DNA from: Stegostoma tigrinum
Lineage: Eukaryota
Length of the DNA: 64,000 nucleotides
Direction of reading: 5' to 3'
Assembly: GCF_030684315.1 (NCBI RefSeq)
Contig: NC_081404.1
Coordinates: forward strand, 18,109,140 to 18,173,139
Numbering within the stretch: position 1 is the stretch's first letter; every line of letters begins with the position of its first letter. Of the stretch, positions 2,636 through 63,850 are shown in pieces. The translations under genes and the position numbers were made by a program. The notes under the pieces were generated by a model that worked only from the letters and a program-made list of their open reading frames with translations, made no database searches and was not told the origin of the DNA.

Positions 2636-11336
<8,701 letters not shown>

Positions 11337-11475
11337 GAGGAGTACTCCTTCATTTGACTTCACCGAGGCGAGTGATTAAAGAAGCGGTAAACACATATCG
11401 ATTGGAACAAACCAGACCTACTCTTGCAGCTGCAACATTGGGAGAAACTGCATTGAAGGTGGGGCGGCCCGTATA

Positions 11476-11853: not shown

Positions 11854-12622
11854 AAACTTTATTTTAAACTGCTATTAAATTTGCAACAATAATGACATTT
11901 CCCAAAACCAATTAATTACTTCCAGATTTCCTGAGGCTGTGAAAGGCACTATAGAAATGCAAATCTGCCTGCCTGTCTCGACATCAGAGGGTTTATCAAG
12001 CAGGCTCAATGCCATGTTCATAATAACTACTTTTTGCTTCCTTTAGTACTTTGAGTGTCACCTTGCCTCTGAGTCACAGGATTGTGAATTTGAATCCCAC
12101 TCATAATATAAGGACTGTCACACTGTTGGAAGTCTCTTCACTGAAATAATTATCTTCTATCTTTAAAATTAATATCGTCCATTCAGAGAATTCTCCCAGT
12201 GTCCCGGTTAACATGCATCCCTCATCAATGTCCGCAACACGGTCTTATTGTGAATAACTTCACTCCTGCACATGAGTACATAAGTAACTACGTTTCAAAG
12301 ATAATTATGTAAACGTATACCACTGTAGGACATCCTGCAGACATACAAAATAAATTCAAGCTGGTTCATTGGTTTCTTTTTATTTATTTTCAGCTATGGA
12401 ATAAAACTAAAATTGGCTAGCTGACTATGGTCACTTGGGGCCAACGATTGAATTAAAAATTTATTTTGATCTTAATCCAAGTTGTAATGAAAACAGACTA
12501 TTTTGACCTTCTTGGCTTTTCAACAGTAGCTGTTCAATATTCTGATTCAACTTTCTGATCAGAAAGTTTGATTTTTAAACAGTGGACTGCTGGAACTGAC
12601 ACCTGCAACATAACACTCTAAA

Positions 12623-12837
12623 GTTTTGGAGTAGTTCTGTAGCTCAGGTTGTGGGTGTTGAGGTTGGTTGGCTTTTGAGCTGGTTTGTTGTTCTGCAGAT
12701 GTTTTGTTATGGTGCTTGGTAACATCCTCAGTGCAACCTCTGATGAAGCTTCAGAGGCTGCACTGAGAATGTTACCAAGCACCGTAACGAAACGTCTGCG
12801 GAACAATAAACCAGCTCGGCGAGCCAACCAAACTCAG
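12623..12837. mobile_element. Palindromic mini-element (second family) with two hammerhead-like motifs, 9-bp TSD
   Basis: Arms inverted around cctctgatgaagcttcagagg; ctgagaat-gttac...gtaac-gaaacgtc at 12763-12796; CACTCTAAA at 12614-12622 and 12838-12846. Confidence 0.75.
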
Positions 12838-13439
12838 CACTCTAAACACACTTCAGTTTCATAAATTCTCCCAAATTTTTTTTGTCCCCAAATTAGTTCC
12901 CAATAAATTACCCTTTTAAGAAAAAACAAGAAACAAAATTCACCTCATACAAATTTGCCATTAATTGGAACTTTATATAATATTGCTGGGGTTTCTACAA
13001 TCAGAGTGTCAGCAAGTGTTAATATCAGTCTGGTTCGTTGCTTGTATTGATGCTAGAGCTGTCACAACAGGTTCCAAGTTCACTAGCATCATTACCAAGT
13101 ATGATCTATAATCTCACTTCTCGTTGACTTTGTTCAATCCAATCTATTATCAATGTCACGTTGTACCACGTGTTACAGGCCAAATGTACAATTCTTAGAC
13201 ACGGAATCTTTGGCTATTTGCAGCAAAGTTGCTGTGCTTTGAGGTGAGGAGGTCAGTAATTACAGTAAATGGCTTATAAAAGAAGGGCAAGAATTAACTA
13301 AAAGGGTCACTGAGTTAGAACTGTAAGGAGCCAAATGTGTGTGTTTGTTTTTAAATTTGATTTCAACATAGGTTAATTGAATACTTTTTTTCTTCTTGGT
13401 AGGCTAAGTTCTGCAGGCAAATCATGCTTTCTTACATGT

Positions 13440-16326: not shown

Positions 16327-16806
16327 GAAATAGTAGGAACTGCAGATGCTGGATGCCACCTGAAGGTTGCAGGAACAGCACCTTTATATTTCACTTGGGA
16401 ACCCTGCAGCCCAATGGTAACAATGTGGACTTCACAAACTTCAAAATCTCCCTTCCCCCTACCCCATCCCAAAACCAGCCCAGCTCGTACCTGCCTCCCT
16501 AACGTGTTCTTCCTGCCACCTCAAGCCCCACCCCCATCTCCTACCTACTAGCCTCATCCAACCCCCTTGACTTGTTCATCCTCCCTGGACTGACCTATCC
16601 CCTCCCTAACTCTACCTGCACTCCCCTTTACTGGCTGTACCTCTGCCTCTTTGACCTGTCTGTCTCCTCTCTACCTATCTTCTCCTGTATCTATCTTCTA
16701 TCTGCCCTTCCCCTCCCCCATTTCTGAAGAAGGGTCTAGGCCCGAAACGTCCGCTTTCCTGCTGCTTGGCCTGCTGTGTTCATCCAGCTCTACGCCTTGT
16801 TATCTT
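16327..16806 (+). mobile_element. 5'-truncated Penelope-like element with a short inverted terminus, nested in a tRNA-SINE
   Basis: GIY-YIG end FIFHLGTLQPNGNNVDF; C-rich 3' UTR; ctgaaga-agggtctaggccc-gaaacgtc at 16724-16751; direct repeat AGCCTGATTA(GAAA) at 16317 and 16807. Confidence 0.85.
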
Positions 16807-19621: not shown

Positions 19622-20690
19622 GGCAGACAGGAACAATCCCTCTCAGTGGGGGAACATTTCAGCAGTCAAGGATGTTGGGGCTCAGATCTTTAGGTAAACG
19701 TCCTCCAAGGCGGATTTTGGGATACACAACAATGCAGAATCGCTGAGCAGAAACTGATAGCCAGGTTCTGTACCCATGAGGACGGCCTCAACTGGGATCT
19801 TGGGTTCATGTCACACTACAGGTGACCCCACTGCACTATTTTTTTTCTTTCTTTCTCTCTCTCTCTTCCCCACCTCCCACACACAAAAATACTCTCTCTC
19901 TACCCCCACCAAACATACACACACGCGCACACACACACTCTTTCTCTCTCTCCCCCCTCACTCGCTGACACTCTCTCACACTCTCTCTCTCTCACACACA
20001 TGCACACACATATGTGAATCTATGCAGTGAATTTATATTTGCAGATACGTTTTATTTTGTTCAAAAAGCATACAATTTATAGGAAGTCAGTCAATATGGT
20101 GCTTTATAAATTCCCACTTTAGAAATAAAACCAGTCTGAATCCAAATTAAAACACAAAATGATTGTAAACAAGGTCTCACATCTAACATAGGAGATAACA
20201 AGGTGTCGAGCTGGACGAACACAGCAGGCCAAGCAGCATCCCAGGAGCAGGAAGGCTGATGTTTCGGGCCTAGACCCTTCTCCAGCATCTGCAGTTACTA
20301 CTGTCTCCTCACACCGAACATGCAGTGTCTGAACTAAAATGTCACATCTTCTTTACACTGATTAAAACTTTCAGTTCTCTCAGGACCGTGACTTGAAAGG
20401 AATTCAGGTATTTACATATACATATTACTCAATTAAAAACTAATGGATTGAAGATTTAACAGCATCTTAGGTTTGTTTAGTATATCCTCCCAATGGTGTG
20501 AACCTTTGATCTTTTATTTTTAAATTCTGTGTCTGATACTACCTCTCTCACTAATACCTGAAGAAGGACTGAGGATCCAAAAGTTTGTGTTTTGAATAAA
20601 TCTGTTGGACCATAACCTGGTGTTGTGTGATTTCTGACATTGCGTGATTTCTGACCTTGTCCAGCCCTGTCCAACACTGGCACCTCCACA
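19622..20690 (+). mobile_element. Penelope-like element 3' part (third family) with CT/CA microsatellite and a degenerate hammerhead
   Basis: GIY-YIG-end-like AEQKLIARFCTHEDGLNWDLGF; ctgaagaagga...tccaaaag at about 20558; terminus ataaatctgttggaccataacctggtgttgtgtga. A first-family piece is nested at 20190-20307. Confidence 0.65.
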
Positions 20691-24179: not shown

Positions 24180-27100
24180 GTAAGGACAAGGTAACTCTGC
24201 AACAAGTCATATTTAAATCTGGAATCTGATCGTAGTGCCAGCATTGAATAGTCGTACTACCAAGATTGGAATTTAATAGAATCGTAGAATCTCTGCAATG
24301 TCCAAGTAACCCAGTTGGCCCATTGAATCCACACCAACCCTCTGAAGAACATCTCACCCGCACCCACTCACCCCTACCCTATCCCCATAACCCTGCATTT
24401 GCCATGGCTAATCCATTTAGCCTGCGCATCCCTGGACACTACGAAAATTTAGTACAGCCAATCCACTTAACCTGCACGTTTGAATGGAAAGATACTATGA
24501 AGGATGAGAATTCTTGTATATGATTCTCTCTTTAAAAGTTGAAAAGGCAGAAATTTAATGTTAGTAATCAGTGCATATTAAAAAAGTTTTTCTTCATTAA
24601 TGTCTGCTATTTTAATGATGGTGCAATCGTTGAAGGAAAATGTATTTGAATATCAATCATTTTCAGTCTATTGTCACTAACTTTCCAAAAAAATTCAAAA
24701 AAGTAACTGAATTTAAATGTAATTCTGCACATAATTTCACTATCTTCTGAATGATATCTCAGTTGTGGCTTAAGTTTCCAGATGATAGAGCTACATAATG
24801 CAACAGAGTAGCGATCTACCGCTGTTGGCAGTTATCTAAGCCTACTACGGGGCCTCAGCCTTGTCTGACCAACTTTGCACAATTCTGCCCTCAGTTTCCC
24901 CCACCAGTCTCAGCATTTAAAAGATCATCCTCCACCATTTCCACCACCTCCAACAGGATGCCACTGCCAAACACATCTTGCCCTCCCTTGTCAGCATTCA
25001 CTCCTGTCACTCCGAACATCTCCTCACCATCAGCACCATCGTCTCTGACCCACTCACAGCGCCTTCCACACAATCATAGAAGGTGTAACACTTCTCCATT
25101 CACCAACTCCCTTCTCCCTGTCCAAGACCCAATCGCACCTTCCAAGTAAAACAGCAGTTTATGTGTACTTCTTTCAATCTAGTCTATTGCATTTGCTGCT
25201 CACAATGCAATCTCCTCTACATTAGTGAGACCAATTGCAGACTAGTGACTGCTTTGTGAAACTCTCTACTCGATGTGTAATGACCCTGACCTGCCAGTCA
25301 TCTGCCATTTCAATATACCATTTTGTTCTCATGTTAACATTTCCACCTTGGGCCTGCCAACATGTTTCAGTGAAGTCCAATGCCAGCTGGATGAATAGCA
25401 CTTCACTTTCCATGCAGGCACTTCACTGTCTTCAGTACTCAAACCAAGTTCAAGAACTTGAACATGAACATGTCCTCCACTTTGATTACACCCACTTCTC
25501 CCAAACAAGTGTCTTGTTTGCATGGATTTGCTCTCAAAAATAGCTAATCTATTTTCTGCAATTAGTACCTACCATTAATATCTATTCCTCACCTGTATCC
25601 CTCCTCTACTCCTATTAACACTTCATTTGCCTCTTGCTCTGGCCACTCTCAACATTTGCTTCACTTGCTTCTCCTCCTCTTTCCTCAACAGCATAAAAAG
25701 TAACACAATTTTCCAGTTCCTTTCAGTTCCAGAAAGGAGTCGTATCGTATCATACCCAAAGTATTAACTTTACTTCTCTCTCCTCAGATGCTGCCAGACC
25801 TGCTGGGTTTCTCCAGCATAGAAGACATAGAGTTGCACGGAAACAGACCCTCAATCCGACTCATCCACATCAACCAGATATCCCAAATTCATCTAGTCCA
25901 ATTTGCCAGCATTTGAACCATATTTCTCTAAACCTTTCCAATGCATGCACCCATCCAGATGCCTGTTAAATGCTGTAACTGTACCAGCCCCCACCACTTT
26001 CTCTGGCAGCTCATTCCATACACACACCACCCTCTGTGTGAAAAAGTTGCCCCTCAGGTCCCTTTTAACTCTTTCCCCTCTCACCTTAAACCTAGTTCTG
26101 GACTCCTCCCACCCTGGGAAAGTGACCTTGGCTATTCACCCTATCCATGCCCCTCAGGATTTTATAAACCTCTATAAGGTCACCCCTCAGCCTCTGATGG
26201 TCCAAGGGAAAACCTCTGTTTATATTTTAGATCTCCAGCATCCACAGTACTTTGCTTTTAAAAATGTTAATGTTTGACAACTCCATCAACACCCCTTGAC
26301 CTGTGACTCTCATTGAACTGGAATCTGAAGGGCTAAAGGATTGTACTGCCAATGTCTTCACTGCTTTGTTTTTGCTTGTTAGCTGGAGGGGAAGGCAAAG
26401 TATGGTCCTGTGTGGAAGGCACGTTTTGGGCCTATCTTGACAGTACACGTGGCAGATCCATCATTAATCGAACAAGTCTTGCGGCAGGAAGGGACACTTC
26501 CAATCCGTTCTGATTTATCATCTTGGAAAGATTACAGACAATATAGAGGGCATGCTTATGGACTCCTCACAGCGTGAGTACAACCAAATCAGCTCTGAAG
26601 TTACAGCAGATGTAAAAGAAATGAGTGTTTGTATGTTATCATGTGAAACAGCCCCCAAGTGCAACTGATAGCTGGAGAATGTGACTTTTCATCTGCTTGG
26701 ATGAGACATTAAATAGAACAATAAAAACTAGTATTTATATAGTGGTTTGATTCAATATCTCAGGTTGCTTCACAGAAGTATGTTTCATTGGTTCAGATTT
26801 CCTGGCACAATTTGAAGAACACGGAATTTTCATGGTATCCTGGCCAACATTCCTTATTGAACAGACATCACTGCTTATCCTTCCATGTTGTGGGGTCTTG
26901 CTGTACATAAGTGTCTGCCACACTGACCTACAGGATAGTTTCAATAGTATGAAGGCAAATGATGGTAGGAAGACATCGCTCGCCATTGATCAAAGCTGAT
27001 TGACCTAAGCACAGGAACATGAGGAGGTTAACTAGCCCCTTAAGTTTTGACTGTAAAACATTGACAGTGCAACAGCTATGGAAATAATGACCTCTTGATC

Positions 27101-30100
27101 AATTGAAACCAAGGTTTACTAGCTTCCAGAGATAATGGGAACTGCAGATGCTGGAAAATCCAAGATAACAAAGTGTGAAGCTGGATGAACACAGCAGGCC
27201 AGGCAGCATCTCAGGAGCACAAAAGCTGACGTTTCGGGCCTAGACCCTTCATCAGAGACCTCTCTGATGAAGGGTCTAGGCCCGAAACGTCAGCTTTTGT
27301 GCTCCTGAGATGCTGCTTGGCCTGCTGTGTTCATCCAGCTTCACACTTTGTTTACTAGCTTCCACTAGCTTCTACGGTACTTCCTCCTTGGGAAAAGGAA
27401 TACTGCATTGATAAGTTAACACGGGGTGACAGTAATCACATAGGGTCACTACTATCTGCTGATTCTTGGCCATTCCTGGAGGTTTTTAACATTTCCATGG
27501 ATCTGTTGCCAGCCCCATGACCCAGAGACAGTTGGTGATTTTCTTTTTTTTAGATTTCTTAGTCATGATTAATTTGTGTGTTGCTTTCAGTCCTTTGTCA
27601 AAAGCTTTACAGTGAAAACAAAAGCACAATGGGTGCAGTAATAAGCAAAAAGAAGAAATGACTCGTATGCCTGCTGGTTCTGCCCCTCAGTTGATAGCCT
27701 GAAGGCTGAATAATAAGGCTTCTGAACTGAGCTCTGCCCTTAAAGCAGAGTTCGAAAATACAGGTTCCACTCTCCTCAACAGAAAATCAGCAAAAACTTT
27801 ACAAAAAAATTAATCACAGGATGTGAGTATTGCTGGTTGGGACATTCATGGCTCATTACTAATTGCTTTGGAGAACATGACAGTGAGCTGCCTTATTGAA
27901 CTGTTGCAGTTCATGGCATGTAGGGACACCCACAATACTGTTAGAAGGAGTTCCAGGATTTTAACCCAGAAACACTGAAGAAATAGTGAAATATTTCCAT
28001 GTCAGAATGATGTGTGGCACTAGGAGGGGAATTTGCAGGCGTTGGTGTTCCCATGCACCTGCTGCATTTATCTTCAATTGTGGAGGTACGAGTTTGGGAA
28101 GTGCTGTCAAAAACAGCCTTGGTGGGTTGCAGCAGTGCATCTTATAGATGATACACACTGCTGCCACTGAGTGTCAGTGATGGAGGGACTGAATGTTTGT
28201 GGATGTGGTGCCAATCAAGGGGGCTGTTTTGTCACATATCATGCTTCTTGCGAGTGCTGTTGGAGCTGTGCCCATCCAGACAAGTGGGAAGTATTCTATC
28301 ACATTCAAGACTTGTGCCTTATAGATGGTGGACAGGCTTTTGGGGAGTCAGGTCGTGAAAGACTGTTTGTAGAAAAGAGAGAAAAAAAGTGATAAAAAAA
28401 GCCACCACCTGTAGTAGAGACCAGACTAGGGACCATAAATATAAGATAGTCATGAATAAACTTTAAGGGAATCCAGCAGAATGTCTTTACCCAGAGAGTT
28501 GTCGGAATCTCAAAATTACTGCCATAAGAAATAGTTGAGCTGAATTGTATAGCTGTATTAAGGTGAAGATGGCTAAATGTATAAGGGAGAAAGGACTAGA
28601 GGATGTGCAAGTTTTACATCAGTATTTTACGTTGGCATCGAACATGGTTCTACTGCTCTCATTACCAATTGAATGATAGGTTAATATCAAAGACTTTTTG
28701 TCCCCACAGAGGATGTTAGTTGTACAGATCTTTTCTAATCACCTGTTCAGAGGTATTATTACACACCTTTTCAGCAGGTGTGATGAACCCAGAACTCCTG
28801 GTCCAGAGGTAGGGACACTACCACTACACCACAAGAGCCCTGTGTTAGTTGTACATTGAATGCTTTACAATGAGAGGTGGACAGTGCAGGATAAATTGCC
28901 AATTTGCCACCTCATTCTTCCAACAGGGAGCTGTGCTCAAAGTGGGAAGAGACCAGAGAATTGATACCACCTCTTACTGACTCATCTCCAATGCCTGTTC
29001 CCTTTGCATGTAGCCCTGCATCAGTTAATTTGCCTTTGGATGAGACATGAAACCAAAATCCCACTGATGCCCTCAGGAGGATAAAAAATAACCCCACAGC
29101 CCCCATTTTGAAGGACAGCAGGGGAATGCTCCTTGGAATCCTAGCCAATACCTATCCTTCAACCAACATCACTAAATCAGATGATTTGATCATTGTCACA
29201 GTGCCGTTTGTGGAAGTTACCTGGATGCAAATTAGTTTTGAGAGGTCTTCCATCACAACAGTGACTTCAAAAATACTTAACTGACTGTAAAGCACTTTGG
29301 CATGTCTGGAAATTGTGAAAGGCATTGTAAAAAAATTGCAAGTTCTTTTTCCTTCCTATTCTAATGCCACTTTAAAGTGAATTCGATAAGTATTTAAAAG
29401 GAATAATATAAAAAGAATGCAGTGGAAGAGCAGGGGAAAAGGAATTAGATTAGATTAGGCTCATTTGAAAAGTTAGCATCAGCACAGGTGGAATGAGTCA
29501 AATGGCCTCTCTTCTGTTGACCCAACTATATCAAACTGTCAGTGATCTCTTACCTCATAAACGATAGTGATGGTTAATGTATATAAAGATACCTTGTGAC
29601 CTTCTGACCTTGTAAGCAGTAAGCTGTTTGGCCATTGCTGTTAGTTCTGCTGTGTTAAGGGCTTTCTTTCTTGCAGAGAAGGAGAGGAGTGGCAGAGGCT
29701 CCGCAGCATGCTCAGCAAACACATGCTGAAACCAAAGGAAGTGGAAGCATACGGTGGTGTCCTCAATGAAGTTGTGACTGACCTGATCCACAGGCTCCGG
29801 CACCAACAAACCAAGAATGACCAGGTCTTGGTGAAGGATCTGGCAGAAGAGTTTTATAAGTTTGGATTAGAAGGTAAGGGCCACTTATAGAAAGAGGGGA
29901 AAGGACAGAGAATGTAATTCATAGAATCCCAACAGTGTGGGAGCAGGCCATTCAGTCCATCAAGTCCACACCAACCCTCTGAAGAGCATCCCATCCAGAC
30001 CCACTTTCCTACCTTACATATCCCATGGCTGATCCACCTACCCTGCACATCTCTGGACCAATGGACAATTTAGCATCGCCAGTCCACCTAACCTGCACAT

Positions 30101-40660: not shown

Positions 40661-40726
40661 TTTTTAAAACTAAAACTGAGAGGACAGATGGAGTCTGCCT
40701 GGCAGTGCAGCACTCTCTCAGTAATG

Positions 40727-41419
40727 AAATGTGAGGCTGGATGAACACAGCAGGCCAAGCAGCATCTCAGGAGCACAAAAGCTGACATTTCGGGCCTAGA
40801 CCCTTCATCAGAGAGGGGGATGGGGTGAGGGTTCTGGAATAAATAGGGAGAGAGGGGGAGGCGGACCGAAGATGGAGAGAAAAGAAGATAGGTGGAGAGG
40901 AGAGTATAGGTGGGGAGGTAGGAAGGGGATAGTTCAGTCCAGGGAAGATGGACAGGTCAAGGAGGTCAGATGAGGTTAGTAGGTAGGAGATGGGGGTGCG
41001 GCTTGGGGTGGGAGGAAGGGATGGGTGAGAGGAAGAACAGGTTAGGGAGGCAGAGACAGGTTGGACTGGTTTTGGGATGCAGTGGGTGGAGGGGAAGAGC
41101 TGGGCTGGTTGTGTGGTGCAGTGGGGGGAGGGGACGAACTGGGCTGGTTTTGGGATGCGGTGGGGGAAGGGGAGATTTTGAAGCTGGTGAAGTCCACATT
41201 GATACCATTAGGCTGCAGGGTTCCCAAGCGGAATATGAGTTGCTGTTCCTGCAACCTTCGGGTGGCATCATTGTGGCACTGCAGGAGGCCCATGATGGAC
41301 ATGTCATCTGAGGAATGGGAGGGGGAGTTAAAATGGTTCGCGACTGGGAGGTGCAGTTGTTTGTTGCGAACCGAGCGGAGGTGTTCTGCAAAGCGGTCCC
41401 CAAGCCTCCGCTTGGTTAC
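40727..41419 (-). mobile_element. Young 5'-truncated Penelope-like element with 16-bp TSD
   Basis: Open GIY-YIG C-terminus TKRRLGDRFAEHLRSV...VANHFNSPSH...EQQLIFRLGTLQPNGINVDF; hammerhead on the minus strand at about 40783-40810; CACTCTCTCAGTAATG at 40711-40726 and 41420-41435. Confidence 0.9.
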
Positions 41420-41444
41420 CACTCTCTCAGTAATGTTTCTTTGA

Positions 41445-41558
41445 CAATGTAACATCCCTGAGTGCTGACCATCTGATGGGGTGATACTCCCTCAGTACTG
41501 CTCCTGCAACAGTGCAGCTCTCCCTTGGGACCAACCCTCTGTCGGTGCAGTACCCTTT
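41445..41558 (+). repeat. Degenerate ~32-bp tandem minisatellite (gcagcactccctcagtactgaccctc-like)
   Basis: Several diverged units; the first unit at about 40702 is split by the Penelope insertion. Confidence 0.5.
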
Positions 41559-48564: not shown

Positions 48565-48975
48565 TCACAGATCAGCCCTTTGAGCATGCTCTGTCATTCA
48601 TCACGATCATGGCTGATCGTCCAACTCAATGGCCTAGTCCTGCTTTCTCCCCATAACCTTGGATCTCATTCACCCCAAGTGTTATATCTAGCTGCCTCTT
48701 AAATATGTTCAATGTTTTGGTATCAACTACTTCCTGTGGTAATGAATTCCATAGGCTTGCCACTCTTTGGGTGAAGAAATGTCTCATCTCCATTCTAAAT
48801 GGTCTACACCAAATCCTCAGACTGTGACCCTGGTTCTGGACACATCCACCATCAGGAACATCCTCCCTGTATCTACCCTGTCTAGTCCTGTAGATGCTGC
48901 TTGGCCTGCTGCGTTCATCCAGCTCTACACCTCGTTATCTCAGATTCTCCAGCATCGGCAGTTCCTACTATCTCT
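48565..48975. mobile_element. CR1 tail (-) fused to a complete Penelope terminus (+, 48892-48974)
   Basis: gatgctgcttggcctgctgcgttcatccagctctacacctcgttatctcagattctccagcatcggcagttcctactatctc. Confidence 0.7.
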
Positions 48976-49299: not shown

Positions 49300-49990
49300 A
49301 GTGGGAGCTGTTTAAATTCCATCTTCACGTGATACGATTTCGAGAAGCTCTAGGCCGTACACCGAGAAGTTTGGTCCTGTTATCTTTCCGTTGGCTGGTT
49401 GAGGTCGGTCACCAGCGAGTCGGCGTTTCACGGACAAAGGTTTCTCTTTATCTGCCATCAAAAAAAAGTTTTAAAAAACCAACAAACTTACATACGCATC
49501 CGCAATTAGCAGATAGCTGGATGACTGAGGTTAGGCGCTCATGATCGGTGACGTGTGACCGGCAGCCAGGTTGATCAATCAGAAACGGAACTGTCCACGT
49601 GCGGTATCTTGAATGGACCAATCAGACGTGTGTGTCAAGGGCGGACCATACCCGAGATGCCGGTGTCGATAACAAAGTGTGGAGCTGGATGACAACAGCA
49701 GGCCAGGCAGCATCCCCCTTTTCTGATGAAGGGTCCAGGCCCGAAACGTCAGCTTTTGTGCACCTGAGATGCTGCTGGGCCTGCTGTGTTCATCCAGCTC
49801 CACACTTTGTTATGTCGGACCATACCTGGTTTTAATTGAAAACACGAGCGCTCTTAACATCGTAAGTTTGTGTTTTCAAATAAATCTGTTGGACTATAAC
49901 CCGATGTCGTGTGATTTCTGACTTTGTCTACTCTAGCCCAACACTGGCACCTCCATAACCATATTGTCAGGTTCGACGAAGCGTGTTTTG
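49300..49990. promoter_or_regulatory. CpG-rich region, probable EEF1AKMT3 promoter / non-coding exon 1
   Basis: CpG cluster with CACGTG E-boxes (about 49326 and 49596), TGACGTG (about 49549) and CCAAT (about 49618), 2 kb upstream of the acceptor at 51541. Confidence 0.55.
49653..49815. mobile_element. Palindromic Penelope mini-element with an intact + strand hammerhead, 11-bp TSD
   Basis: CGGACCATACC at 49642-49652 and 49816-49826; ctgatga-a-gggtccaggccc-gaaacgtc at 49723-49750. Confidence 0.85.
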
Positions 49991-55550: not shown

Positions 55551-57328
55551 CCAAGAGAAATCTATCATTTTAATATGACAGTCAAGATGAGGCAGACCTT
55601 CTGTGGGTGACCCATGTAGTACTTGTTTTGAAGAATTTTCTGTCTTGTGATAAGAATATTTCTAATTTTCTTTTTGACTTCCTTGAAAATCTGTTTAGTT
55701 CTTGAAGTTGGTAGCATATCCTAGGATGCAGTTCAATGTATTTCACTGATAATCTGTTTCATTGACAACTTAGCTAAATGGCTACTTTTCACATCAGCTG
55801 CAAGAGTTTAATGGGCCATTTTACCGTTTAGGACACGACAACCAAGGCCCATGCTGTTCGACCATCTATGGCTTGTTGTTTCTCCATCTCCAACCCCATC
55901 CTTGGTCCAAGGGGACTGAAATCACTGGGAAGAGTTGCTGGTGCCTCTTTGGCTGAGAACCTCGCTGTAGTAATTCAGTGAGCTGTCAGATGTGGTTTTT
56001 TTTTTTTGAACAAATATAATGGTTTTGTTTAAGCAGTAAGAAATTATTGAGAGAGTGAATTTGTGGAGAGACAAGGACAGCTGAACAAACGCAGACAGCT
56101 GAAATAACATGTTTGATTATTATCTGCCTGCTGTTATTTACTCAACTTTCTCACAGTTGCACTTCAGCAGAGAGCAACACTGGCACTATACAAAATATAT
56201 CAACAAAAATAAGCATAAAACTGATTTCTCTGCCTGTAGCTAGGGTGCCAGTTTGGGACATCCATGTGGAAGGGGTGCCCTCCAAAACCTCAGTTAAGTT
56301 GGCAGCATTAATATGTGGACAGTATAGCTCAGGTGGTTTGATAAAGGGGAGATGTTCAGAATGAAGCCTGAAGCTGTACTTACCTGACATGTCTTTGTGT
56401 GCGCACACACACGCACGCACGCACGATCAGGAGCAGGGACTCTCTCTTCCCTCATCCCAACCAATAAATACTGAGGCCAAATGTAATGTTGCCATTGCTG
56501 CCTAGGTTGACTCCATATTAACACTTGTTTAATGTACTTAACATTTCAGTAAAGTATTAATCTTGGTATTCTTAGAATAGAAACTCCATGGAAAACTCAC
56601 TGAACGATCTGAGAGCTAACATTGATAATAATTATGTAGATGTTACTATCTTTCTGATTGAAGTAAGATACATTTTGGATGAAGAAAACAACAAAATTAT
56701 GTACATTGAAATTATGCTGCAGTGAGGAATGTTAGTGCTGGACAAAAGAATATTTTTCCATACTTGGTATTGAATGGTTATCTTTATTCAACACATGCTA
56801 TGGACCTTGGATCTTCACTGGCAGCTCACCTTCAAAGAATCAACTGCATGGTGTTGACTTTGCATGTCTTTCAATACAGTAACAATGTGTCTTAAATCAT
56901 GGCACAGGCAAGCATCCTTAACTCACTAGCCTGACTTTTCCTCAGCTTTAAAGTGTAATTCATGCCATAGACTTTCACTGGATCTACAATAAATGGATCA
57001 TGGACGTGCCCAAATTCATTTCACAGACATCTATTGGAAGGACTACTTATTACACCATTCTGTGTTGAATTTAAACCAGGTTAGCTGAAAGACCAACTGC
57101 ACGAAGCCATGCTACCCAACTCACACTTGCCAAAAATAATTATATTTATGATTACATTTATGGAAATTTTTTCAGTTGTTTTTCAAACATAAATAGTTCC
57201 TCAAAACTGAACATAATATTGAAGAAAAGTGCCTCCAAACCAACTGTGCCTGTTTGGCTGTACTGTGTGTCAGCATTTTGTGTAGCTGTGTTACCAAGTT
57301 TCTGTATGCTGACCACTTTGTGTTTACA

Positions 57329-57560
57329 GACATAGTAGGAACTGCCGATGAATTCTGAAAATCTGAGATAAAATGGTGTGAAGCTGGATGAACAGAGCAG
57401 GCCAAGCAGCATCAGAGGAGCAGGAAAGTTTGATGGTTTAGGTCGAGACCCTGCTTCATACTTTTCTAAAGAAGGGTCTCGACCCGAAACGTCAAACTTT
57501 CCTGCTCCTCTGATGCTGCTTGGCCTGCTGTGTTCATCTAGTTCTACACTGTTTTATCTC
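57329..57560. mobile_element. Palindromic Penelope mini-element, hammerhead cores mutated
   Basis: Arms at about 57365-57451 and 57474-57560; ctaaagaagggtctcgacccgaaacgtc; flanking repeat CACTTTGTGTT at 57314 and 57560. Confidence 0.8.
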
Positions 57561-58156
57561 ACTTTGTGTTATATTTGCTTTAACTCCCAAGCTAAGAGAA
57601 TTGTATTGCAATTGCCAAAGAGAAACAGACACCGAAGGAATTATCACTATTCTGAAACTTGGTCAGTAGTTTTATTCTGTAAAATGCAACCAAACTGTTC
57701 ATAAAGACAAAATATTTCAAACACCTTGTCATTTTGTTAAATTGAAAGAACAAACATGTATTTCTGCAGTGCCTTTCATATTAAGATATCCCAAAAGGTT
57801 TCACTGTCAATGAGGCACTTCAACAGTCTAGTCACTGTTGCTACAAAAGTGCTATGTCTTGCTAAGCAAGGTTCAACAGATGCCAGAAAACCTCTGATAC
57901 CTTACCCAAGTAGTCATTCACGTGAGATGAGACAGACCATTTGACTTTAGAAGGCATCCGATATTGATGTTTTGTCTTTCCTCTCTAGCTAATAAGCGCT
58001 GAGGAAAATTATAGTGTCATTCTACCTTAGGTAATATTTGCTACTACAGCAGAGGCTTGGGATCAAGCCTAGGACCATCTGATCTATGTAGCTAAATTCC
58101 AAATTGATCACATAAGTTTCACAAGAAAATTGCAAATGAGAAAGTTCACTTTCTTA

Positions 58157-60550: not shown

Positions 60551-60803
60551 GAACAAAAACAAAGTTGCTGGAAAAGCTCAGCAGGTCTGGCAACATCTGT
60601 GATGGAGAAAACAAGAGTTAACGTTTCAGGTCGGGTGACCCTTCCTCACAACTGAACGGTTGAACGCAGTACGAAGAAGGGTCACCCGACCTGAAACGTT
60701 AACTCTTTTTTTTTCCTTCACAGATGTTGCCAGACCTGCTGAGCTTTTCCAGCAACTTTGTTTTTGTTCCTGATTTACGGCATCTGCAGTTCTTTTGTTT
60801 TTA
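60551..60803. mobile_element. Palindromic Penelope mini-element (ggtcac..gacc subfamily)
   Basis: Arms gaacaaaaacaaagttgctgg...gacccttc and gaagggtc...ccagcaactttgtttttgttc, plus the extension gcatctgcagttc. Confidence 0.85.
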
Positions 60804-62534: not shown

Positions 62535-63850
62535 TATCACCTCCCTGTACCATGATCACACCAGTAAACTATTATTTCCACAGTCATCACTGATCTCATC
62601 TGGGGATTTGATCCCCAACAACCTTCCACCTTATTGCCCCTGCAACCCTGAATGGCCCACTTCCGCCACCTTCCCAAAATCCACATATAGGACTGGCCGG
62701 GCAGATTCATTTGTTCCAGCTTGTTCCTGCCCCATGGAACTTGCTTCTTCCTACCACTTACATCATGATTCTTCTGATGTCTTATGATCAGTTTCAAAAC
62801 TTCCAGTTTGCTGGAATCTGCCATCTCCTCTTCACCATGGACATGTAATCCTTCCACATGTCCATCCCCATCAGGCTAGTCTGAGGGCTCTGTCTCTTTC
62901 TCAAGGGGGAGGCATTGGCCTCATGGTATTATTACTAGACTATTAATTCAAAGACCCAGGTAATATTCTGAAGCCCCAAAATTGAAATTCACCATGGTAC
63001 ATGGTGAAATTTGAATCTAATAAAAATCTGGAATCATTGTTGATTATCAATAAAAAAAATCTGGTTCACTAATGCCCTTTAGGGAAGGAAACTGTTGTCC
63101 CTACCTGGTCTGGTCTACATATTCCAGACCCATAGCAATGTGCTTGATGCTTAACAGCACTGTGAGCAATTAGGGAGGGGCAATAAATGTTGACCCAGCC
63201 GGCAATGCCAACATCCCATGAACAAACTTTTCAAAAGTAGGCCTGAACCATCCCTATCCGCCATCACCCTTCTCCTGGCTGAGCTTGTCCCTACTTTGAA
63301 CAACTTCACCTTTAACTTTTCTCACTTTCTTCAGGTCAAAGGTGTGGCCATGGGTACATGCACAGGCCCCAGTTATGCCTGTCTCTTTGTGGGTTACATG
63401 GAACATTCCTTGTTCCAGACCTACTAGGGTCCCTCCCTACAATTCTTTCCTGGTACATTGATTAATTAGTGCTGCTTCCCTCTCCCACCCAGAATTGGAA
63501 AACAAATCAATTTTTCTAAAAGTTTCTACCCTGCTCTCACCATCACTTGGTCCTTTTCTGACTCCTCCCACGTCTTCTTTGACATCTTGGTTTCCATTGC
63601 TGGGGAGAGGCTGGCCACCAAAATCCACAAGAAACCCACTGACTCCCACAGTTACCTCGGCTATACATCCTCACAAACTGCCTTCTGTAAAGACTCTATT
63701 CTATTCTCCCAGTTTCTCTGTCTCCATTGCATCTATTCTGATGATGCAGCCTTCTGCAGGGGCCCTTAGAAATGTCTGTCTTTTTCCTCAAACAAGAATT
63801 CCCTGCCATCACAGCAGAGCCCTCAGCTGTGCCTGACCCATTTCCTGCAC
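62535..63850 (+). mobile_element. Degenerate Penelope-like RT region interrupted by a tRNA-SINE (62907-63222)
   Basis: LAELVPTLNNFTFNFSHFLQVKGVAMGTCTGPSYACLFVGYME; IHKKPTDSHSYLGYTSS; in-frame stops. Confidence 0.8.

Follow-up and report, generated by a model that had tools for sequence, protein, structure and literature searches.

The stretch of DNA analysed here (64 kb of Stegostoma tigrinum, referred to as the window) contains CYP27B1, for which protein mapping gave nine exons on the + strand. Exon 2 (approximate bounds 26383-26574, +) shows 100% identity to a shark 25-hydroxyvitamin D-1 alpha hydroxylase; among the 120 matches listed for it, those with a name were CYP27B1 or hypothetical proteins. 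A short palindromic unit lies about 540 nt downstream of this exon (543 nt from its donor), and exon 3 (approximate bounds 29677-29875, +) follows ~2.3 kb downstream of the unit. The mapping thus placed the unit in intron 2, as proposed in an earlier note on this DNA. Upstream of CYP27B1 and on the same strand, a Methyltransf_4 gene has its exons within 5627-11360; we take it to be a METTL1/Trm8-like tRNA methyltransferase gene, and the order of the two genes on one strand is presumably that of the human locus. Two decayed remnants of Penelope-like elements (PLEs) were also seen, one from the linker/GIY-YIG region of an ORF in CYP27B1 intron 1 (24900-25422) and one from a reverse transcriptase (RT) region near the window end (63239-63799). 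Both share 36-52% identity with the homologs P0001 and P0002 described below.

The whole unit is 224 nt long (27129-27352), and no ORF is left between its arms. Two arms of 92 nt each (27167-27258 and 27261-27352) face each other with one mismatch, exactly as the earlier note had described. Since this mismatch (27202/27317) is a G.U pair in + strand RNA, the predicted + strand hairpin is uninterrupted; in - strand RNA it is A.C. The hairpin has a minimum free energy of -203.4 kcal/mol (z -27.6), and 0 of 200 shuffled sequences folded equally well. The dinucleotide CC is indeed present between the arms, but it is not a spacer: comparison with a longer sibling at 40722-41419 showed that CC continues the template of the right arm as its next two bases. 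The centre junction is therefore blunt, without any untemplated base. Counted with the CC, the right arm spans 27259-27352 (+) and ends at a short, tail-less terminus, and the left arm (27167-27258, element sense on -) covers arm positions 1-92. The arms stop 3 and 5 nt short of C3 of the hammerhead core.

Only the left arm carries a 38-nt extension (27129-27166, -; arm positions 93-130), the PLE "tail". Its match to 48886-48974 was confirmed, with 85% identity between the tail-bearing arm and that locus over arm positions 43-130; the locus itself is a single tail-bearing arm and not a longer Penelope terminus, as had been assumed. The unit is flanked by an exact direct repeat of 12 nt (27117-27128 and 27353-27364), in agreement with the proposed target-site duplication (TSD). 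The repeat reaches 15 nt when GTT, which also ends the right arm, is counted (27114-27128 and 27350-27364, +), and the last CA of its left copy also matches the tail end of the family. Among 2000 random position pairs none reached a 12-nt repeat and one reached 11 nt. The eight bases to the right of the TSD (27365-27372) repeat the inner part of the TSD in tandem and were probably part of the pre-insertion site.

The arms belong to an element that encodes an RT together with a GIY-YIG domain at the C-terminus, which supports the PLE origin claimed before. In the longer single-arm sibling (40722-41419, -), flanked by a 16-nt TSD, the C-terminal half with GIY-YIG leads into the pseudo-LTR (pLTR) that is found in the unit; this copy supplies the native upstream sequence. 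An 83-aa remnant of this sibling matched 38 of 67 candidate proteins, with the shark proteins P0001 (98%) and P0002 (94%) at the top; both proteins align to 40770-41452 at 85-97%. In Pfam, P0001 scored 23.2 bits for GIY-YIG, above the cut-off of 22.6, and 22.7 bits for RVT_1, below the cut-off of 29.6, and the more distant homolog P0035 reached 37.4 bits for RVT_1, above the cut-off. When Pfam was run on the window's own remnant, the GIY-YIG half was not detected; the domain is seen in the homologs. The frame of the right arm equals the C-terminus of P0002 at 14 of 15 residues, and P0002 reads through into the terminus. Because the GIY-YIG half of the sibling runs into the arm and the P0002 C-terminus matches it, the arms are the pLTR of an RT/GIY-YIG PLE, and the unit is composed of two 5'-truncated pLTR copies, head to head. 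The nearest homolog, P0001, has a Cys-rich linker between RT and endonuclease (EN), a mark of Neptune and Nematis in the PLE survey of Craig et al. (2021, PMC8557442). Judged from this linker, the parent may well be a Neptune-type element; a full-length copy was not recovered.

Each arm contains an intact hammerhead core, as had been noted. In the right arm (27264-27291, +) helix I comprises 2 bp (27262-63 with 27292-93), helix II spans 27272-27283 and there is no helix III; by motif position the predicted cut falls after GUC at 27291, the site named before. The left-arm motif (27255-27228, -) consists of CUGAUGA, an extra A, a 4-bp helix II and GAAAC-GUC, with the predicted cut after 27228. 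Both show the features of PLE minimal type-I hammerheads, namely an extra base after A9, G10.1-C11.1, a palindromic 15.2-16.2 and no helix III. Helix I measures 2 bp not only in the two arms but equally in the long sibling, which has its native upstream sequence, so truncation does not account for the short helix; across all 7 motif matches of the window helix I spans 0-3 bp. Covariance models, which the earlier note had suggested as a check, gave no Rfam hammerhead in the window scan. The best local match, to Hammerhead_3 (27226-27293), scored 15.6 bits against a threshold of 48.5 (E 0.58), and we rejected it, as in this alignment the left arm supplies helix III and no helix I adjoins that GUU site. 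The scan also returned ~37 matches to miRNA families, all below the gathering score, which reflect the perfect hairpin.

The idea that either strand of the unit encodes a hammerhead is true of the motif only: each RNA contains one hammerhead with a 2-bp helix I, and its antisense arm is transcribed first. As there is only one hammerhead per RNA, the two cores cannot form the dimer that PLE minimal hammerheads need. The head-to-head arrangement places the antisense arm first on either strand, and in CYP27B1 pre-mRNA or in antisense RNA this arm would capture the hammerhead arm as it is transcribed. Folding predictions agree with the sequestration of the ribozyme in the hairpin that had been suggested. 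In the whole-unit fold, the pair probabilities of helices I and II were 0.000 and a hammerhead-like fold cost 64.5 kcal/mol; C3 was paired to the antisense (left) arm with probability 1.000 at all 5 transcript lengths folded. A lone arm folded as an extended hairpin, its core paired to the strand of the cleavage site, with a probability of 0.0001 for helix I and a penalty of 7.8 kcal/mol, and for two sense arms in trans the cofold minimum was -38.0 kcal/mol compared to -5.5 kcal/mol for a double-hammerhead dimer. These are equilibrium predictions for RNA without protein, and the anole PLE hammerhead needs protein help (Frangieh et al. 2024, PMC11167929). Both arms read across an uncleaved GUC site. 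On the basis of these models, the unit is predicted to be catalytically silent.

To place the unit in its family, the arm was compared with the window by blastn. This gave 9 loci in 64 kb, about one per 7 kb, of which 6 have two opposed arms and 3 a single arm; a profile search recovers the same 9 loci by construction. A flanking repeat of 10-15 nt was present at all six two-arm loci, once with 2 mismatches, and at one of the three single-arm copies (16 nt). At the settings used, no TSD was found for 22306, 48886, 12620 and 20878. The centres of the six two-arm copies all differ, and in five of them the tail sits on exactly one arm. The exception, the copy at 49668, is the sole two-armed copy without a tail, and 15 nt (49653-49667) lie between its left TSD and its tail-less arm. 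At the inner junctions, four of the six copies share 2-4 nt, one is blunt and one has 6 unassigned nt. Expressed as arm positions, the inner ends are 1 and -1 in the unit at 27129 (blunt), 41 and 41 at 1676 (2-nt overlap), 5 and 3 at 57329 (6 nt unassigned), 49 and -7 at 49668 (4-nt overlap), 9 and 101 at 20190 (3-nt overlap) and 104 and -454 at 16327 (2-nt overlap), all taken from the per-row alignment values. At 20190 and 16327 a tail-only arm (positions 101-130 and 104-130, respectively) lies opposite an arm ending at 96-97, and the two arms have no common sequence. In the window, 7 of 15 arms end within ~16 nt of arm position 1. An older sibling at 57314-57570 has the same layout as the unit at 27129; its arms are 93 nt long, the left one bears the tail, the cores of both are decayed and the TSD measures 11 nt.

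Within the window, blastn identified six self-inverted repeats shorter than 700 nt, all of which resemble PLE termini, the one at 12620-12879 being judged by eye from a hammerhead-like motif. Core remnants in both arms occur in three others (57364-57561, 60551-60769 and 12620-12879), and both cores are intact only in the unit at 27129. The palindrome at 12620-12879, between the METTL1-like gene and CYP27B1, has arms of ~130 nt and a symmetric centre and represents a third PLE-type family; each arm holds a decayed hammerhead-like core with a 5-bp helix II and a 3-4-bp helix I. A second PLE family is represented by the twin-core palindrome at 60551-60792, with 97-nt arms that are 96% complementary, 25 nt between them, the tail on the right arm and only an imperfect 9-nt flanking repeat. 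Many 5' ends of family copies (27259-27263, 49715-49722 and 40812-40820) fall in a pyrimidine run just upstream of the core, which presumably resembles a TCT-type initiator. If element transcripts start at this run, the RT would run off the 5' end of the RNA, and this would account for arms that are short and almost equal in length.

Contigs from 4 of 23 sequencing runs, with organism B represented by two studies, were compared over 26200-27280, an interval that leaves the right junction outside. In organism B, a related species, the match of two contigs (X7 record 25, X5 record 18) ends at 27128, beyond which they continue with 539 further non-element letters, a signal present in both organism B runs compared. 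From the position where the match ends, the run-on letters being unread, we infer that the organism B site is empty. The flank differs between the species by 40 letters and 4 gap letters in 896, or about 5%. The claim of a single insertion is supported by the TSD and by the exact end of the organism B matches at the last base of the left TSD copy, and the insertion is likely recent.

It is extremely improbable that the palindrome is a fold-back artefact of assembly or library preparation. Among the contigs listed for the locus over the compared interval none spans the centre or the whole unit, as an artefact would allow. Against this stand the exact TSD, the mismatch between the arms, the templated CC and the unequal arm ends, which coincide with the two natural termini of the family. 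Moreover, in two samples of organism A, contigs (X1 record 1 and X4 record 10) go from the unique flank 21 nt into the element with 0 differences, a distance that is shorter than the 31-letter bridging rule; sample S1 may be the assembly's own. In sample S2 a contig breaks at 26823-26851, where depth is 7.5 versus 10.9.

The same runs provided information on the family as a whole. From each organism A run ~140,000 contigs were aligned, and their loose ends pile up at 27127 (at least 746 in X1) and at 27162-27164 (at least 663, at least 2073 and at least 831). These pile-ups mean that there are thousands of insertions and that two termini, separated by 35-37 nt, are preferred. In both species, other loci yield contigs that cross a centre which coincides with that of the unit or adjoins it (gap row 27262, with 18, 13, 9 and 15 contigs in the four runs, and record 16). 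Joints between opposite strands (27127-27131 to 27159-27166) connect, among the best 15 (252 further were found), nearly always a tail end to a short end, and none of these 15 is tail-tail or short-short. Such joints may represent unitigs that have an adjacent insertion at either end, or palindromic units arrayed in tandem. Pattern scans for relatives of the arm gave 0 loci in the viral contigs and one in the metagenome contigs (L001), which holds only a 21-22-nt motif in an unrelated context and was taken as chance.

The unit is very probably a dead-end product of PLE insertion. Its fuller description as two truncated, hammerhead-bearing PLE ends, placed head to head within a TSD, likely by one insertion event, and predicted to be silent, is somewhat probable. 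The full route that we propose, with one priming on each target strand, is about as probable. By this route, the endonuclease of the element would nick both target strands 12-15 nt apart. Primed by each 3' end, uncleaved element RNA would then be reverse transcribed, in one case from the tail start and in the other from the short start ~35 nt upstream, possibly aided by pairing of 2-3 nt (CA and GTT at the outer junctions). Synthesis of the two cDNAs would end immediately 5' of the hammerhead core, at 3 and 5 nt from C3, and the cDNAs would be joined, here bluntly, before fill-in gives the palindrome and the TSD. The target of the unit shares CA with the tail end of the family and GTT with its short end, which lends weak support to priming at both target ends. 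We also counted for double priming that the two termini 35-37 nt apart match the pair of RT start sites on either side of the tail in Poseidon PAc of Anolis, where both target strands are cut and extended and uncleaved RNA is used (Frangieh et al. 2024, PMC11167929).

The same dead-end product could have arisen by fold-back, in which the cDNA primes itself or an antisense template is used, and resolution by the endonuclease leaves the tail on one side. Arkhipova et al. (2013, PMC3846280) proposed self-priming as the origin of head-to-head junctions in PLEs, and the tail has been attributed to EN-mediated resolution (Craig et al. 2021, PMC8557442). The arms are identical at 91 of 92 positions, and three of the six two-arm copies (27129, 57329 and 1676) are near symmetric, as fold-back predicts and as counts against double priming. 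Two siblings (16327 and 20190), however, have non-overlapping arms that fold-back cannot make, which is why two primings are favoured, and a third (49 versus -7) is strongly asymmetric. In addition, the centre bases of the unit continue the template of the tail-less arm, a strand that lacks the tail found on the second arm. Fold-back is rather unlikely. Double priming must also be weighed against the recurrence of some centres at other loci in both species and a sibling sample drawn from one window.

That recurrence brings up a further reading, in which the PLE enzyme copies the 224-nt palindrome in trans and thereby mobilises it as a non-autonomous unit of MITE-like or retrozyme-like character. 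Both intact cores, the near-identical centres elsewhere and the many window arms that end close to position 1 would fit such a unit. The differing centres of all six two-arm copies in the window and the lack of head-to-tail tandem units do not fit it, and a recurrent centre is explained equally well by a hot-spot for stops or by the 5' end of an RNA. A 92-bp duplex is also expected to hinder reverse transcription. A MITE would have one fixed structure and a fixed short TSD; in the window the centres vary and the flanking repeats range over 10-16 nt. We consider a mobilised unit very unlikely. The same low probability applies to the more speculative version in which palindromes with a core-adjacent centre are self-propagating, self-silenced, ribozyme-bearing MITE-like units, tolerated in introns as the antisense arm would block the ribozyme. 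Two primings during a single PLE insertion remain our preferred explanation.

With regard to the host gene, the likely fate of the insertion would be that of a passive intronic 92-bp duplex, possibly A-to-I edited. Palindromic repeats in a frog and a lizard Penelope are heavily edited, and the elephant shark hyper-edits repeats (Porath et al. 2017, PMC5625713); by analogy, the duplex is a plausible ADAR substrate, with 44 adenosines within it. These observations, together with the intronic position close to the exon 2 donor, could speak for a hairpin co-opted to regulate CYP27B1 via editing, splicing or conditional ribozyme cleavage. We consider this highly improbable, because the unit is apparently absent from a relative whose intron differs so little, its + strand contains no GTRAG, poly(A) signal or pyrimidine-tract-AG, and family loci are so frequent in the window. 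Neutrality is the default, given that the insertion is young and the family dense. As one young insertion among thousands, the locus itself is of little import, although it could serve as a presence/absence marker of lineages. Of wider use are the thousands of short two-armed shark insertions, a natural data set in which double priming and fold-back could be distinguished from junction statistics alone. It bears on how PLEs form inverted repeats and one-sided tails, a question left by Craig et al. (2021, PMC8557442) and Frangieh et al. (2024, PMC11167929).

A search by title and abstract start, in a literature collection with few subscription journals, returned no publication that deals with palindromes of shark PLEs or with twin priming by PLEs. 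In L1 twin priming, the second target strand primes a second cDNA, which results in an inversion with microhomology. The siblings at 16327 and 20190 show the non-overlapping pattern of this process; the shark primings differ in that both would start no more than 40 nt from one end, so that the arms usually overlap. Non-LTR retrozymes resemble the unit in being short, non-coding and pLTR-derived with a type-I hammerhead. They form tandems in head-to-tail order and can dimerise (Li et al. 2026, 10.64898/2026.07.22.740005, the main text of which does not contain the word "shark"), whereas the shark unit is single and head to head. We rejected an identity with retrozymes, which comprise at least two head-to-tail units, as the arms are inverted and there is no tandem unit.

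Cervera and de la Pena (2014, PMC4209133) defined the minimal hammerhead of metazoan PLEs, report no cleavage as a monomer and low cleavage as a dimer, and note that Schistosoma has dual motifs that lie on opposite strands and are separated by 100-700 bp. The shark motif shares the core, the extra nucleotide between 9 and 10.1, G10.1-C11.1, the palindromic 15.2-16.2 and the absence of helix III. It differs in a helix I of 2 bp, equal to the D. virilis variant, compared to 4-5 bp in Schistosoma, in a helix II of 4 bp and in cores only 8 nt apart. Poseidon PAc agrees with the shark unit in the two termini bounding the tail and in insertion from uncleaved RNA; it belongs to a PLE clade other than that of the shark parent, as far as the linker motif indicates, and inverted products are not explained in the sections of that paper considered here (PMC11167929).

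The closest likeness in layout is to insertions of endonuclease-positive PLEs. For these, Craig et al. (2021, PMC8557442) describe a neighbouring copy that is inverted and 5'-truncated, and a tail of 30-40 bp that is often present at just one end. Arkhipova et al. (2013, PMC3846280) describe inverted pLTRs, mostly in head-to-head order, with a tail and with TSDs of 8-10 bp, and Schostak et al. (2008, PMC2377424) a 34-37-bp repeat and inverted termini that vary in size. Inverted termini, tails and TSDs are treated as routine PLE peculiarities (Goubert et al. 2022, PMC8969392). The shark unit has the head-to-head inverted truncated copy, the 30-40-nt tail at one end, a TSD within the ~8-16 nt range and a parent with RT and GIY-YIG. 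It stands apart in belonging to a shark family, in its extreme truncation to 224 nt without an ORF between the arms, and in a parent with a Cys-rich linker. Hence, the unit is most likely an ordinary insertion scar with an already published layout rather than a new kind of element.
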